Below, one piece after another: positions 1-18,735 of a DNA stretch of 64,000 nt. The notes beneath the pieces are model-generated. The model was not told where the DNA came from and made no database searches. It saw only the letters and a program-made list of their open reading frames with translations. The DNA lies in the sequence record OP172784, one strand, 5' to 3'. Both the position numbers and the translations under genes were made by a program. How positions within the stretch are numbered: the first letter of the stretch is position 1; every line of letters begins with the position of its first letter. Source of the stretch: Escherichia phage ECO07P1.

Positions 1-2498
1 GAGATTGGATGAAGCGAATGGAAGACATCGGTCTCGAAGCTCTCGGTATGAACGATTTTAAACTCGCTTATATCAGTGATACATATGGTTCAGAAATTGT
101 TTATGACCGAAAATTTGTTCGTGTAGCTAACTGTGATATTGAGGTTACTGGCGATAAATTTCCTGACCCAATGAAAGCAGAATATGAAATTGATGCTATC
201 ACTCATTATGATTCAATTGACGACCGTTTTTACGTCTTTGATTTGTTGAATTCAATGTACGGTTCAGTATCAAAATGGGATGCAAAGTTAGCTGCTAAGC
301 TTGACTGTGAAGGTGGTGATGAAGTTCCTCAAGAAATTCTTGACCGAGTAATTTATATGCCATTTGATAATGAGCGCGATATGCTCATGGAATATATTAA
401 TCTCTGGGAACAGAAACGACCTGCTATTTTTACTGGTTGGAATATTGAGGGATTTGACGTTCCGTATATCATGAATCGTGTTAAAATGGTTCTCGGTGAA
501 CGTAGTATGAAACGTTTCTCTCCAATCGGTCGAGTAAAATCTAAACTAATTCAAAATATGTACGGTAGCAAAGAAATTTATTCTATTGATGGCGTATCTA
601 TTCTTGATTATTTAGATTTGTACAAGAAGTTCGCATTTACTAATTTGCCATCATTCTCTTTGGAATCAGTTGCTCAGCACGAAACCAAAAAAGGTAAATT
701 GCCGTACGATGGTCCTATTAATAAACTTCGTGAGACTAATCATCAACGATACATTAGTTATAACATCATTGACGTAGAATCAGTTCAAGCAATTGATAAA
801 ATTCGTGGGTTTATCGATCTAGTTTTAAGTATGTCTTATTACGCTAAAATGCCTTTTTCTGGTGTAATGAGTCCTATTAAAACTTGGGATGCTATTATTT
901 TTAACTCATTGAAAGGTGAACATAAGGTTATTCCTCAACAAGGTTCGCACGTTAAACAGAGTTTTCCAGGTGCATTTGTATTTGAACCTAAAGCGATTGC
1001 TCGTCGATACATTATGAGTTTTGACTTGACGTCTCTGTATCCGAGTATTATTCGTCAGGTTAACATTAGTCCTGAAACTATTCGTGGTCAGTTTAAAGTT
1101 CATCCAATTCATGAATATATCGCAGGAACAGCTCCTAAACCGAGTGATGAATATTCTTGTTCTCCGAATGGATGGATGTATGATAAGCATCAAGAAGGTA
1201 TCATTCCAAAGGAAATCGCTAAAGTATTTTTCCAGCGTAAAGATTGGAAAAAGAAAATGTTCGCCGAAGAAATGAATGCCGAAGCTATTAAAAAGATTAT
1301 TATGAAAGGTGCAGGGTCTTGTTCAACTAAACCAGAAGTTGAACGATATGTTAAGTTCAATGATGATTTCTTAAATGAATTATCGAATTACACCGAATCT
1401 GTTCTTAATAGTCTGATCGAAGAATGTGAAAAAGCAGCTACACTTGCTAACACAAATCAGCTGAACCGTAAAATTCTTATTAACAGTCTTTATGGTGCTC
1501 TTGGTAATATTCATTTCCGCTACTATGATTTGCGAAATGCTACTGCTATCACAATTTTTGGTCAAGTTGGTATTCAGTGGATTGCTCGTAAAATTAATGA
1601 ATACCTAAATAAAGTATGTGGAACTGATGGTGAAGATTTCATCGCGGCGGGTGATACTGATTCGGTATATGTTTGTGTAGATAAAGTTATTGAAAAAGTA
1701 GGTCTTGACCGCTTTAAAGAACAAAATGATTTAGTTGAATTCATGAATCAGTTCGGTAAGAAAAAGATGGAACCTATGATTGATGTTGCATATCGTGAGT
1801 TATGTGATTATATGAATAACCGCGAGCATCTGATGCATATGGACCGTGAAGCTATTTCTTGTCCTCCGCTTGGTTCAAAGGGTGTTGGTGGATTTTGGAA
1901 AGCGAAAAAACGTTATGCTCTGAATGTTTATGATATGGAAGATAAGCGATTTGCTGAACCACATCTAAAAATCATGGGTATGGAAACTCAACAGAGTTCA
2001 ACACCAAAAGCAGTACAAGAAGCTCTCGAAGAAAGTATTCGTCGTATTCTTCAGGAAGGCGAAGAGTCTGTCCAAGAATACTATAAGAACTTTGAGAAAG
2101 AATATCGTCAACTTGACTATAAAGTTATTGCTGAAGTAAAAACCGCGAACGATATAGCGAAATATGACGATAAAGGTTGGCCAGGATTTAAATGCCCGTT
2201 CCATATTCGTGGTGTGCTAACTTATCGTCGAGCTGTTAGTGGTTTAGGTGTAGCTCCAATTTTGGATGGAAATAAGGTAATGGTTCTTCCATTGCGTGAA
2301 GGAAATCCATTTGGTGACAAGTGCATTGCTTGGCCATCGGGTACGGAACTTCCAAAAGAAATTCGTTCTGATGTACTGTCTTGGATTGACTACTCAACTT
2401 TGTTCCAAAAATCGTTTGTTAAACCGCTTGCGGGCATGTGTGAATCGGCTGGCATGGACTATGAAGAAAAAGCTTCGTTAGACTTCCTGTTTGGCTGA
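1..2498 (+). CDS. 43: DNA polymerase gp43, 5'-truncated at window edge (C-terminal ~830 aa)
   Basis: Open frame from window start to TGA 2496-2498; family-B polymerase motifs (SFDLTSLYPSII, KILINSLYGALG, AAGDTDSVYV); recognisably T4 gp43. Confidence 0.95.
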   Translation, partial: DWMKRMEDIGLEALGMNDFKLAYISDTYGSEIVYDRKFVRVANCDIEVTGDKFPDPMKAEYEIDAITHYDSIDDRFYVFDLLNSMYGSVSKWDAKLAAKLDCEGGDEVPQEILDRVIYMPFDNERDMLMEYINLWEQKRPAIFTGWNIEGFDVPYIMNRVKMVLGERSMKRFSPIGRVKSKLIQNMYGSKEIYSIDGVSILDYLDLYKKFAFTNLPSFSLESVAQHETKKGKLPYDGPINKLRETNHQRYISYNIIDVESVQAIDKIRGFIDLVLSMSYYAKMPFSGVMSPIKTWDAIIFNSLKGEHKVIPQQGSHVKQSFPGAFVFEPKAIARRYIMSFDLTSLYPSIIRQVNISPETIRGQFKVHPIHEYIAGTAPKPSDEYSCSPNGWMYDKHQEGIIPKEIAKVFFQRKDWKKKMFAEEMNAEAIKKIIMKGAGSCSTKPEVERYVKFNDDFLNELSNYTESVLNSLIEECEKAATLANTNQLNRKILINSLYGALGNIHFRYYDLRNATAITIFGQVGIQWIARKINEYLNKVCGTDGEDFIAAGDTDSVYVCVDKVIEKVGLDRFKEQNDLVEFMNQFGKKKMEPMIDVAYRELCDYMNNREHLMHMDREAISCPPLGSKGVGGFWKAKKRYALNVYDMEDKRFAEPHLKIMGMETQQSSTPKAVQEALEESIRRILQEGEESVQEYYKNFEKEYRQLDYKVIAEVKTANDIAKYDDKGWPGFKCPFHIRGVLTYRRAVSGLGVAPILDGNKVMVLPLREGNPFGDKCIAWPSGTELPKEIRSDVLSWIDYSTLFQKSFVKPLAGMCESAGMDYEEKASLDFLFG

Positions 2499-2511
2499 TA
2501 GAATAAATCTA

Positions 2512-3067: not shown

Positions 3068-3319
3068 ATGGAAACTTTAGTAGCAGGTTCAATTTTTATG
3101 GTTTTAGTTTCAGGCGTGTTGGCTATTATTATATACATGCTTCCATGGTTCATCGCCTTGATGCGTGGGTCAAAATCGACAGTAGGAATCTTTTTCACAT
3201 CTTTACTGTTTAACTGGTCAATTATTGGTTGGTTTATTACATTTATTTGGTCAATTGCAGGTGAAACTAAAAAGTCTGCGCAGCCAAATCAGGTAATTAT
3301 CATCAGAGAGAAGGAATGA
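3068..3319 (+). CDS. imm: Imm, superinfection immunity membrane protein (83 aa)
   Basis: 83-aa two-TM protein matching T4 Imm in length and position between 43 and 42. Confidence 0.8.
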   Translation: METLVAGSIFMVLVSGVLAIIIYMLPWFIALMRGSKSTVGIFFTSLLFNWSIIGWFITFIWSIAGETKKSAQPNQVIIIREKE

Positions 3320-9237: not shown

Positions 9238-9863
9238 TGCTTTATCAAATGCACAAGTGCAAAGACACGTACAAATATAAAGGTGCCCAGTGTTATATCA
9301 TTAATCGTGAAAACGCAGGTCCAGGTCATTCGCATCAATCGCGGTTTGTATTCGTTAAAAACAACGAAATTATAGCAGTTGCTAATTACATGCTTGCGAC
9401 TAGTGATGTTAATCCGGTGCCTTTTACATATTATAATCTAATGGACTTGGCGTACGATTATAATTGGTTTAATCATGATAATTTGGCTCATATTGAAGGC
9501 GTAGGATTTGACATCTCTTATTCTAGTTACTCGTTGTGTCCTATGAGCCGAGCTCATAAAGAGCCTGAATATTTTTCATTTCATCGGCGTGTAGACTTTA
9601 AACGCAGCACAGAGTATATCGGTGGAATCTTTGTTAAAGATAATCGAATTACTCGCATTATTTATCCTTTGGGCTGTGGTCAAAAAGATATTGATGTTGA
9701 TTTAGACTTTACTGAAAACATCATTAATCATATTGCTTCTGTGTATTTTGATATTGATCATAAAATTGTAATATGTGGATATGAATTACCATCAGAAAAA
9801 CAGTCTAAAGTGAATGTTTCTATTGATGACCAAATTTTTAATGCTTTTATGAATAGAGGTTAA
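9237..9863 (+). CDS. Hypothetical protein (T4 61.2 position)
   Basis: 208-aa ORF; TAATG overlap with sp. Confidence 0.55.
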   Translation: MLYQMHKCKDTYKYKGAQCYIINRENAGPGHSHQSRFVFVKNNEIIAVANYMLATSDVNPVPFTYYNLMDLAYDYNWFNHDNLAHIEGVGFDISYSSYSLCPMSRAHKEPEYFSFHRRVDFKRSTEYIGGIFVKDNRITRIIYPLGCGQKDIDVDLDFTENIINHIASVYFDIDHKIVICGYELPSEKQSKVNVSIDDQIFNAFMNRG

Positions 9864-10031: not shown

Positions 10032-11060
10032 ATGTCATCAATACCTTGGATTGATAATGAGTTTGCATATCGTGCATTAGCTCATTTACCTAAATTTACA
10101 CAAGTAAATAATAGTTCAACTTTTAAATTGCGGTTTAGATGCCCTGTTTGTGGAGATTCAAAAACCGACCAAAATAAAGCTCGTGGATGGTATTATGGCG
10201 ATAATAATGAAGGAAATATTCATTGTTATAACTGTAACTATCATGCACCAATCGGAATATATTTAAAGGAGTTTGAACCCGATTTATATCGTGAGTATAT
10301 CTTTGAAATAAGAAAAGAAAAAGGTAAAAGTCGTCCAGTAGAAAAACCTAAAGAACTTCCTAAACAACCTGAGAAGAAAATAATTAAATCTCTTCCGTCA
10401 TGTGTTAGATTAGATAAACTGGCGGAAGACCATCCAATTATAAAATATGTAAAAGCTCGTTGTATTCCAAAGGATAAATGGAAATATCTTTGGTTTACAA
10501 CCGAATGGCCTAAATTAGTTAATAGTATAGCACCAGGAACATACAAAAAGGAAATACCTGAGCCTCGTCTTGTTATTCCAATTTATAATGCTAATGGAAA
10601 AGCTGAGTCTTTTCAAGGACGTGCATTAAAGAAAGATGCTCCCCAAAAATATATCACCATCAAAGCTTATCCTGAAGCAACAAAAATCTATGGCGTTGAA
10701 CGAGTTAAAGATGGTGATGTATATGTTCTAGAAGGACCTATAGATTCACTTTTTATTGAAAATGGTATAGCTATTACAGGTGGTCAATTAGACCTAGAAA
10801 TTGTTCCATTTAAAGATAGACGTGTATGGGTTTTAGATAATGAACCTCGTCATCCTGACACTATTAAACGAATGACTAAATTGGTTGATGCAGGAGAAAG
10901 GGTTATGTTTTGGGACAAATCTCCCTGGAAATCAAAAGATGTTAATGATATGATTAGAAAGGAAGGTGCAACCCCTGAACAAATTATGGAATATATGAAA
11001 AATAATATTGCGCAGGGGTTGATGGCTAAAATGCGGCTATCTAAATATGCTAAGATTTAA
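10032..11060 (+). CDS. 61: gp61 DNA primase
   Basis: 342 aa; N-terminal zinc ribbon CPVCGDS...CYNCNYH; matches T4 gp61. Confidence 0.95.
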   Translation: MSSIPWIDNEFAYRALAHLPKFTQVNNSSTFKLRFRCPVCGDSKTDQNKARGWYYGDNNEGNIHCYNCNYHAPIGIYLKEFEPDLYREYIFEIRKEKGKSRPVEKPKELPKQPEKKIIKSLPSCVRLDKLAEDHPIIKYVKARCIPKDKWKYLWFTTEWPKLVNSIAPGTYKKEIPEPRLVIPIYNANGKAESFQGRALKKDAPQKYITIKAYPEATKIYGVERVKDGDVYVLEGPIDSLFIENGIAITGGQLDLEIVPFKDRRVWVLDNEPRHPDTIKRMTKLVDAGERVMFWDKSPWKSKDVNDMIRKEGATPEQIMEYMKNNIAQGLMAKMRLSKYAKI

Positions 11061-11257
11061 ATTAACCCAACTAAAGCAAATGCTAAATCTACGAATGTAT
11101 CAAGAGTAATTACTGGAATATTAACGCCATGAGCAATAGCAATTGGCGATAAAACAAAATTCCAAAGTAAAATTCCTACCATAGCAGAAATAGTAAAAGC
11201 TATACGTTTTTTATTACCTTTTATGGCATTAACAAGTGCCATTAATTTTTGTACCAT
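11057..11257 (-). CDS. Small two-TM membrane protein (66 aa), antisense to the surrounding early genes
   Basis: GGAGGA SD 3 nt upstream of ATG on - strand; late-promoter-like AATAAATA about 22 nt upstream; stop overlaps gene 61 stop. Confidence 0.4.
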   Translation of the reverse strand: MVQKLMALVNAIKGNKKRIAFTISAMVGILLWNFVLSPIAIAHGVNIPVITLDTFVDLAFALVGLI

Positions 11258-11327
11258 ATGTCCTCCTTATTGCTTTATATATTTATTGTATAATTAATCT
11301 ACTAATCCATGAATTGAAAGGATATAT

Positions 11328-11978
11328 GTGAATTACCAAAAAATTTACTCGGCTTTAATTACAAAAGCTAAATGCCGGCATCTTGGTGGATATAAAGAAC
11401 GCCATCATATAATTCCTAGATGTATGGGAGGAGCAGATGACAAAAACAATCTTGTTGAGTTAACTGCGCGTGAGCATTTTATAGCTCATAGATTATTAAC
11501 CAAAATATATCCAGATGTGAGAGGATTGCATTATGCTGTAAATTTAATGCGATATAATAAAGGTGTTAAATTAACAAGTAGATTAATAGAAACCCTTAAA
11601 ATTCAAAACTCTGTTCTTTTCTCGGGTGAAAATAATCCTAGATATGGCAAGCCGTCATGGATTAAAGGCAAAAAGACCCCAGAAGAAACTAAAGCCAAAA
11701 TGCGTCTAGCTCATAAAGGTAAAATTATATCCGATGAAGCCAAGGCTAATATGAGTAAAGCCCGAAAAGGAAGATTTAGCGGTAAAAATTCACCTCGATA
11801 TGGTTTACCGAATCCAAGACGTGGTGAGATATGGAATTCGTATGATTCGCTTTACGAGTTGTGGGTTTATAATAATAGACCTAAGCGCACAAAATTTAAT
11901 AAAATAGCTGTCAAGGCAGGTTATCCTAATATCTGCTATAGACATATGATAGAAAACTTCATAAGAAAGGAAAAATAA
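11328..11978 (+). CDS. Free-standing HNH homing endonuclease (216 aa), GTG start
   Basis: HNH motif ERHHIIPRCMGGADDKNNLVELTAREHFIAH; repeated NPRYG-type DNA-binding repeats; AAGGA SD before GTG. Confidence 0.8.
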   Translation: MNYQKIYSALITKAKCRHLGGYKERHHIIPRCMGGADDKNNLVELTAREHFIAHRLLTKIYPDVRGLHYAVNLMRYNKGVKLTSRLIETLKIQNSVLFSGENNPRYGKPSWIKGKKTPEETKAKMRLAHKGKIISDEAKANMSKARKGRFSGKNSPRYGLPNPRRGEIWNSYDSLYELWVYNNRPKRTKFNKIAVKAGYPNICYRHMIENFIRKEK

Positions 11979-12532: not shown

Positions 12533-12540
12533 TATAAATA
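12533..12540 (+). promoter_or_regulatory. T4 late promoter TATAAATA upstream of soc
   Basis: Exact TATAAATA about 30 nt upstream of soc ATG. Confidence 0.5.
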
Positions 12541-17419: not shown

Positions 17420-18735
17420 CATTTGATGATTTGACAGAAGGCCAGAAAAATGCCTTTAACATCGTTATGAGGGCTATTAAAGAAAAGAAACATCATGTAA
17501 CTATTAATGGACCTGCTGGTACTGGTAAGACTACTCTTACTAAGTTCATCATTGAAGCCTTAATATCTACGGGCGAAACTGGCATTATTTTAGCAGCTCC
17601 TACTCATGCAGCTAAAAAGATTCTTTCAAAACTGTCAGGGAAAGAAGCGAGTACTATTCACAGTATTCTCAAAATTAACCCAGTAACATATGAAGAAAAC
17701 GTTCTTTTTGAGCAAAAAGAAGTACCGGATTTGGCTAAATGCAGAGTATTAATCTGCGACGAAGTGTCAATGTATGATAGAAAGCTATTTAAAATTTTGC
17801 TTTCAACTATTCCCCCATGGTGTACTATAATTGGAATAGGCGATAATAAGCAAATTAGACCTGTTGACCCAGGAGAAAACACTGCTTATATCAGTCCATT
17901 CTTTACACATAAAGATTTTTATCAGTGTGAACTCACTGAAGTTAAACGCAGTAATGCTCCTATTATTGATGTAGCTACTGATGTTCGTAATGGTAAGTGG
18001 ATTTATGATAAAATTGTTGACGGGCATGGAGTACGTGGATTTACTGGTGATACCGCTTTACGCGATTTTATGGTAAATTATTTTTCAATCGTAAAATCAC
18101 TAGATGATTTGTTTGAAAATCGCGTAATGGCATTTACGAATAAATCTGTTGATAAGTTAAATAGCATTATTCGCAAAAAGATTTTTGAAACTGATAAAGA
18201 TTTTATCGTTGGTGAAATTATTGTAATGCAGGAACCATTAATTAAAACATATAAAATTGATGGAAAGCCTGTGTCAGAAATTATTTTTAATAACGGACAA
18301 TTAGTTCGTATTATAGAAGCAGAGTATACATCAACGTTTGTTAAAGCTCGTGGTGTTTCTGGAGAATATCTAATTCGTCATTGGGATTTAACAGTAGAAA
18401 CTTACGGCGATGATGAATATTATCGTGAAAAGATTAAAATAATTTCATCTGATGAAGAGCTGTATAAGTTTAACTTATTTTTAGGTAAAACGGCGGAAAC
18501 TTATAAAAATTGGAATAAAGGTGGAAAAGCTCCATGGAGTGATTTTTGGGATGCTAAATCGCAGTTTAGTAAAGTGAAAGCACTTCCTGCATCAACATTC
18601 CATAAAGCTCAGGGCATGTCTGTAGACCGTGCTTTTATCTATACGCCTTGTATTCATTATGCAGATGCTGAACTAGCTCAGCAGCTTCTTTATGTTGGTG
18701 TAACACGTGGTCGTTATGATGTGTTTTACGTATGA
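17416..18735 (+). CDS. dda: Dda DNA helicase (SF1B)
   Basis: 439 aa, Walker A GPAGTGKTT; near-identical to T4 Dda. Confidence 0.95.
   Translation: MTFDDLTEGQKNAFNIVMRAIKEKKHHVTINGPAGTGKTTLTKFIIEALISTGETGIILAAPTHAAKKILSKLSGKEASTIHSILKINPVTYEENVLFEQKEVPDLAKCRVLICDEVSMYDRKLFKILLSTIPPWCTIIGIGDNKQIRPVDPGENTAYISPFFTHKDFYQCELTEVKRSNAPIIDVATDVRNGKWIYDKIVDGHGVRGFTGDTALRDFMVNYFSIVKSLDDLFENRVMAFTNKSVDKLNSIIRKKIFETDKDFIVGEIIVMQEPLIKTYKIDGKPVSEIIFNNGQLVRIIEAEYTSTFVKARGVSGEYLIRHWDLTVETYGDDEYYREKIKIISSDEELYKFNLFLGKTAETYKNWNKGGKAPWSDFWDAKSQFSKVKALPASTFHKAQGMSVDRAFIYTPCIHYADAELAQQLLYVGVTRGRYDVFYV

Follow-up and report, generated by a model that had tools for sequence, protein, structure and literature searches.

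The window analysed here, a stretch of 64,000 nucleotides from Escherichia phage ECO07P1 (sequence record OP172784), carries on its reverse strand, directly behind the DNA primase gene 61, a short open reading frame (ORF) that is a real and conserved gene for a small membrane protein, equipped with its own Shine-Dalgarno sequence (SD) and a putative late-type promoter. This gene of T-even phages is probably transcribed late in infection, and its product would cross the inner membrane once, with the amino terminus inside and the carboxyl terminus outside (N-in/C-out); a role in the cell envelope can be guessed at weakly. An earlier note on this DNA had proposed a 66-aa reverse-strand ORF in the 267-bp gap after gene 61, an SD, an upstream box matching the late promoter at seven of eight positions and a stop codon overlapping that of gene 61. 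All of these elements were located:

11057..11257, minus strand: the reverse-strand ORF, 66 aa, ATG start and TAA stop, MVQKLMALVNAIKGNKKRIAFTISAMVGILLWNFVLSPIAIAHGVNIPVITLDTFVDLAFALVGLI, member of the protein family phrog_2024
10032..11060, plus strand: gene 61, DNA primase (phrog_47, E=9e-107), converging on the reverse-strand ORF
11261..11268, minus strand: Shine-Dalgarno sequence AAGGAGGA, 3 nt 5' of the ATG
11280..11287, minus strand: late-promoter-like box AATAAATA, a 7/8 match to TATAAATA (-13..-6), with A at -13 and no -35 element

The stop codons of the two convergent genes share 4 nt (11057-11060). Over the 551 bp around the ORF, identity is 100% with Escherichia phage ECO07P3, and hundreds of Tequatrovirus genomes match at 96-99%. 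The genome of the window is that of a Tequatrovirus (T4-like), and its plus strand corresponds to the early strand of T4. The ORF was also said to be the lone reverse-strand coding candidate in roughly 22 kb ahead of the holin/tail-fibre block. The annotation of ECO07P3 agrees, as from gene 43 to asiA (about positions 1-36,200 of the window, some 36 kb) all other annotated coding sequences lie on the early strand.

The length of the ORF alone is mildly unusual, since 5000 rounds of dinucleotide shuffling of the gap gave an ORF of at least 66 aa 62 times (1.2%), so that its conservation decides whether it is a gene. Searches with tblastn matched the protein in 692 phage records. Disruption of the ORF in related genomes had been named beforehand as a sign against a gene; the ORF is intact, with at least 80% of its length covered, in 686 of these 692 records. 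The number of records with the ORF at 80% identity or more (502) matches that of records with a primase at least 95% identical (501), which implies that essentially every Tequatrovirus carries it. The substitutions are biased towards synonymous changes, as had been anticipated. Within Tequatrovirus the pairwise ratio of non-synonymous to synonymous substitution rates (dN/dS) is mostly 0.06-0.22, and the pooled ratio of the proportions of non-synonymous and synonymous differences (pN/pS) is 0.146 in the frame of the ORF, the lowest of the six frames, versus 0.25-1.69 in the other five. Variable sites fall at codon positions 3, 1 and 2 in the numbers 12, 7 and 2. A pN/pS of 0.11-0.13 was obtained when RB69 was compared with another Mosigvirus. 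The homologues of Mosigvirus (RB69) and Gaprivervirus share about 50% protein identity, with synonymous differences at saturation (pS 0.63-0.81), and their length and motifs are kept. Overlap with genes of the other strand is limited to the 4 nt at the gene 61 stop, and an overlapping gene thus cannot explain the constraint. These comparisons show a reading frame under purifying selection, and the ORF is a genuine coding gene of T-even phages.

The same data bear on the idea that the gap is nothing but the terminator of gene 61 followed by a spacer between divergent promoters, the ORF being a chance frame propagated by annotation pipelines. Three further features of the plus strand enter here:

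11223..11252, plus strand: terminator-like hairpin with T-run (ATGGCA-TTAACAAG-TGCCAT), 3' of gene 61 and within ORF codons 5-12
11270..11294, plus strand: middle-promoter-like TTGCTTTA-N11-TATAAT (MotA box and -10), ahead of the HNH gene and gene 56
11328-11978, plus strand: HNH homing endonuclease gene, 216 aa (phrog_655, E=4e-60)

The hairpin inside the ORF and the candidate middle promoter overlapping its upstream region would suit a spacer, as would the modest rarity of such ORFs in shuffled sequence and the omission of this one from reference annotations. In T4 the ORF is intact but unannotated in the dam-61 gap (NC_000866, 17738-17938, plus strand), and the annotations of T2 (NC_054931) and JS98 (NC_010105) also leave out an intact ORF. 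The hairpin is present in Tequatrovirus loci but was found in neither the RB69 nor the JS98 locus, both of which conserve the ORF; it cannot account for the conservation of the ORF, and the notion that the ORF is a mere terminator hairpin of gene 61 was rejected on this ground. A spacer also leaves unexplained the frame-specific purifying selection, the invariant residues described below, the conserved SD and the near-universal intactness of the frame. Judged from these genome comparisons, a chance frame is highly improbable and essentially refuted.

The protein belongs to a family that is already in databases. It matches the phrog_2024 hidden Markov model (HMM) over the full length, residues 2-66 aligning with profile positions 1-65 of 65 (E=5.4e-31), and every subfamily matches the same profile (E=5e-31 to 2.5e-15). 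It is 100% identical to deposited proteins, its 90% cluster has 156 members, and it bears the annotated names RB32ORF030w in RB51 and RB32 and RB69ORF029w in RB69. Entries under phrog_2024, RB69ORF029w and RB32ORF030w are the same gene as the ORF of the window, in the same place beside gene 61 and with no difference at the sequence level. The gene is thus already on record: hundreds of genomes have it annotated as a hypothetical protein, and phrog_2024 groups these proteins.

In every genus where it is found the gene holds a fixed place, tail-to-tail with gene 61. The convergent arrangement extends over at least ten sampled genera (Tequatrovirus and at least nine further), with Mosig-, Gapriver-, Dhaka-, Marfa-, Kanagawa-, Mosuguk-, Gelderland- and Jiaodavirus represented besides Tequatrovirus, and in all genera with a homologue the stops of the primase gene and of the homologue overlap or lie a few nucleotides apart. 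Gaprivervirus VR25 has two tandem paralogues before the primase stop, VR25_031 and VR25_032 (1995-2192 and 2201-2401 of the extracted locus), which correspond to two subfamilies found singly in other genera. The subfamily of the second VR25 copy is also that of Dhakavirus, Marfavirus, Kanagawavirus, Mosugukvirus and Gelderlandvirus, and the Jiaodavirus homologue is a third variant. In an alignment of 33 sequences W32, N33 and P38 are invariant and form a W-N-x4-P core, A40 and P48 are at least 90% conserved, and G44 is usually kept; the protein of the window carries all six residues. The loci examined from Krischvirus and Aeromonas Biquartavirus contained no phrog_2024 gene. In Krischvirus KFS-EC the gap between the primase and dUTPase genes holds an unannotated ORF of 187 aa with an HNH-like motif (HIDGNPENN; locus 1944-2507, plus strand).

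When 1.84 billion representative proteins were searched with a profile HMM, seven matches were returned, all of them family fragments or one spurious long protein. A search of 5.8 billion proteins returned 117, every one of them encoded on a T4-like contig and either without a name or labelled 'hypothetical', and a scan of IMG/VR added just seven further loci. On the evidence of these searches phrog_2024 is a narrow and uncharacterised family. The sources searched assign it no function, expression class or promoter; no paper was found under the names RB32ORF030w and RB69ORF029w, and literature searches on T4 antisense transcription, late promoters, RNA sequencing (RNA-seq) and ribosome profiling (Ribo-seq) yielded nothing on the locus. 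Two database labels deviate from 'hypothetical protein', the name of the remaining entries. One is 'putative head morphogenesis protein' in the T6 record AP018814 (locus 1926-2111), which was rejected as an unreliable similarity transfer; the same record names gene 56 'ferredoxin' and calls a small neighbouring ORF 'terminase large subunit'. The other is 'Holin', on a single UniRef100 entry (A0A482MZV5, phage OE5505), rejected as an automatic transfer.

The expression signals ahead of the gene are conserved independently of their surroundings. The reverse-strand sequence directly before the start reads ...CAATAAATATATAAAGCAATAAGGAGGACAT-ATG, and GGAG(G) occurs at the equivalent site in all homologous loci examined. 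Upstream flanks are wholly different between lineages, with dam in T4, the HNH gene in the window and gene 56 or other ORFs elsewhere; the SD and (N)ATAAATA are kept whatever the upstream gene. In 17 of 18 loci the heptamer ATAAATA lies 20-29 nt 5' of the ATG, and with the Jiaodavirus locus, which has it too, the count is 18 of 19; it always stands just before the GGAG(G) SD. The base at -13 is A, G, C or T among the homologues, and Marfa and IME523 have the complete TATAAATA. A list of 50 T4 late promoters comprises 32 perfect copies of TATAAATA and nine sites with A at -13, the commonest natural variant (Geiduschek and Kassavetis, PMC2988020); position -13 is poorly conserved among T4-like phages (Nolan et al., PMC1524935). 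From the box a transcription start is predicted near 11274, with a leader of about 17 nt.

T4 early and middle transcripts have a single polarity and late transcripts either polarity (PMC2988020). Since early and middle transcription in T4 is confined to the other strand, the reverse-strand gene in the early block is likely to be expressed late. Throughout the window ATAAATA is depleted (19 copies observed, 37.4 +/- 6.6 expected, every shuffle having at least 19), which suggests selection against stray late promoters. In the early block one plus-strand copy alone closely precedes a gene; it lies at 12534-12540, about 31 nt 5' of the capsid gene soc. Late genes of T4 driven by gp55, for example soc in the same block, likewise have a short box, about 17 nt before a strong SD, and no -35 element, whereas the reverse-strand ORF is opposite in strand to all its neighbours and the -13 base varies among its homologues. 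Two stray reverse-strand copies of ATAAATA are present in the early block, at 9659 and 22746.

Between 7000 and 11100, over at least 4 kb past the ORF, a search for terminator-like sites on the reverse strand found none, and the late transcript should therefore run antisense into gene 61. This raises the question of whether the main product is the RNA itself, silencing or interfering with primase and early-region mRNA, the peptide being secondary. Such a reading would accommodate the long stretch free of terminators as well as the conservation across genera of a convergent, stop-overlapping arrangement with gene 61. Antisense RNA alone would, however, need neither selection on the protein nor a paralogue nor an SD. 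Selection acts on the amino-acid sequence, with pN/pS lowest in the frame of the ORF; the W-N-x4-P core is retained at 20-50% protein identity with pS at 0.63-0.81; a tandem protein paralogue exists in Gaprivervirus; and a strong SD is conserved. An RNA as the main product is decidedly unlikely. A perfect 9-bp inverted repeat, CAACCCCTG...CAGGGGTTG, was seen in the 3'-terminal part of gene 61 (10975-11022). Its reverse-strand RNA forms a strong hairpin (z=-2.9) that lacks a U-run, and two related contigs differ in one base of the stem; the repeat might stabilise the late antisense transcript at its 3' end or owe its presence to chance.

The protein itself was predicted by the earlier note to have two transmembrane (TM) segments, of which one stands and the other is doubtful. 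The amino-terminal stretch up to residue 18 is basic (K4, K13, K16, K17, R18) and amphipathic, and no basic residue occurs beyond position 18. The helix of residues 19-42 is strongly hydrophobic (19-residue Kyte-Doolittle mean about 2.0, Hessa sum near 0). Residues 47-66 reach a Kyte-Doolittle value of 1.87, yet D53 and D57 lie within them and their Hessa sum is +6.2; across the family the sums for this second segment are +3 to +12. The hydrophobic moment of the carboxyl-terminal helix is 0.31-0.45 in the family, versus 0.05-0.13 for the TM helix. The AlphaFold2 model, built on the 33-sequence alignment, consists of a helix at 2-42, a loop at 43-51 and a second helix of 12 residues at 52-63 (pLDDT 78.7, pTM 0.52). 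For RB69ORF029w a single TM segment has been predicted at 21-41 (Nolan et al. 2006, PMC1524935). According to these scales and the model, one TM helix (about 19-42) followed by a short, amphipathic and acidic carboxyl-terminal helix fits the family better than two TM segments. By the positive-inside rule, applied to the basic amino terminus, the topology is likely N-in/C-out, with a cytoplasmic amino terminus, one span and a short amphipathic helix in the periplasm.

The two hydrophobic stretches on the Kyte-Doolittle scale (19-42 and 47-66) would suit a holin-like or pinholin-like hairpin of two TM segments, one that makes the inner membrane permeable in the late phase; the two-TM description in the earlier note implies this reading. 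The size of 66 aa and the probable late expression fit this possibility, and the one 'Holin' entry in UniRef100 would speak for it, all other UniRef names being 'hypothetical protein'. Features of the second segment speak against it: this segment has two conserved acidic residues, it is clearly amphipathic in subfamilies B and C (Hessa +5 to +12), and its helix in the AlphaFold2 model is just 12 residues long. The protein ends in ...DLAFALVGLI, with no charged hydrophilic tail, and it matches no holin family of Pfam, NCBIfam or PHROG. Class II holins and pinholins are likewise small and hydrophobic, and share the probable late expression; they differ from the ORF product, which has no family match among them and no charged carboxyl-terminal tail, has an amphipathic and acidic second segment and is encoded outside the lysis cassette. 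The neighbours of the gene encode primase, the HNH endonuclease and dCTPase, the holin gene t is about 25 kb away, and the e and spanin genes are far off. In T4 genetics t is established as the only holin gene required for lysis. A holin function of the ORF product is accordingly rated unlikely.

Searches for other relatives gave no match in Pfam, NCBIfam or PADLOC (holin families: none at E<=1-10; PADLOC: none at E<=10), noise at E>1 in a profile search of the PDB, and family members alone in a fold search of BFVD. Within the same genome block, T4 Imm (83 aa, superinfection immunity; window 3068-3319, plus strand) is also a small inner-membrane protein, but its gene lies on the early strand, two TM helices are clear in it, and a profile comparison indicated no relationship (hhalign probability 0.6%). 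The antiholin RI of T4 has an amino-terminal membrane segment and a periplasmic carboxyl terminus, and acts on the lysis machinery. A role of this kind is what is guessed at for the ORF product; RI differs in its larger periplasmic domain and releasable signal-anchor, the predicted periplasmic part of the ORF product being only about 24 residues.

Several observations weigh against a late gene for an N-in/C-out membrane protein acting in the envelope. As to the promoter, the late-promoter HMM that Nolan et al. applied to RB69 called none at the site, T4 carries GATAAATA (NC_000866, 17,709-17,716, with a predicted start near 17,722) and some genera CATAAATA as variant candidate boxes, and CGG4-1 lacks the exact ATAAATA heptamer. 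The 70-bp intergenic region is predicted to hold divergent promoters of different temporal classes, with AATAAATA inside the spacer of the canonical-looking middle promoter; this spacer is AT-rich, and part of the conservation of the box could serve that promoter. The topology depends on crude hydrophobicity scales and a model of the monomer, and a helical hairpin is possible for subfamily A. Finally, the protein has no homology to any characterised protein and its gene is not near the lysis genes.

With these points taken into account, a late-transcribed inner-membrane protein is still the probable explanation, and its action may be pictured as follows. RNA polymerase modified by gp55, gp33 and gp45 would start from the box late in infection and produce a transcript with a leader of about 17 nt; its continuation antisense into gene 61 would probably be a by-product. 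The product would insert into the inner membrane, with the basic amino-terminal helix and its cluster of lysines and arginine in the cytoplasm. The W-N-x4-P core would be borne by the periplasm-proximal end of the TM helix, and the carboxyl-terminal amphipathic helix, usually with an acidic position (D/E), would lie at the periplasmic face. Tight conservation of the motif at the outer-leaflet or periplasmic end argues that the protein has a specific envelope partner and does not simply damage membranes non-specifically. The protein might then modulate a late envelope event, be it lysis timing, lysis inhibition or membrane integrity, a suggestion that is put forward weakly. A more definite version, in which it is a late-phase player of the T-even envelope that tunes lysis timing or inhibition by holin T and its antiholin or protects the membrane, while read-through of its transcript might damp primase, is speculative and rather improbable.

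The genes around the ORF follow in the order sp, 61.2, 61.1, 61, gap, HNH homing endonuclease, gene 56 (dCTPase) and soc. The 267-bp gap extends from gene 61 to the HNH ORF, the next of the plus strand, which begins at 11328. The HNH gene occupies the slot held by dam in T4, and the same slot is empty in RB51. The stretch from the reverse-strand ORF to gene 56 looks like an insertion hot spot; in other lineages it contains other ORFs.

T4 is the reference model of lytic phage biology, yet its reference annotation lacks the ORF, and screens or omics studies that rely on the T4 reference gene list alone would miss the gene; it is a reasonable and inexpensive target for a knockout. Should the mutant show no phenotype, the gene would count as one more conserved small membrane protein of phages. 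If the protein proves to affect the timing of lysis, the integrity of the membrane or the host range, a gap would be filled in a classic system, and if the envelope or lysis reading is true, a new gene would be added to one of the best-studied systems of lysis and late development.

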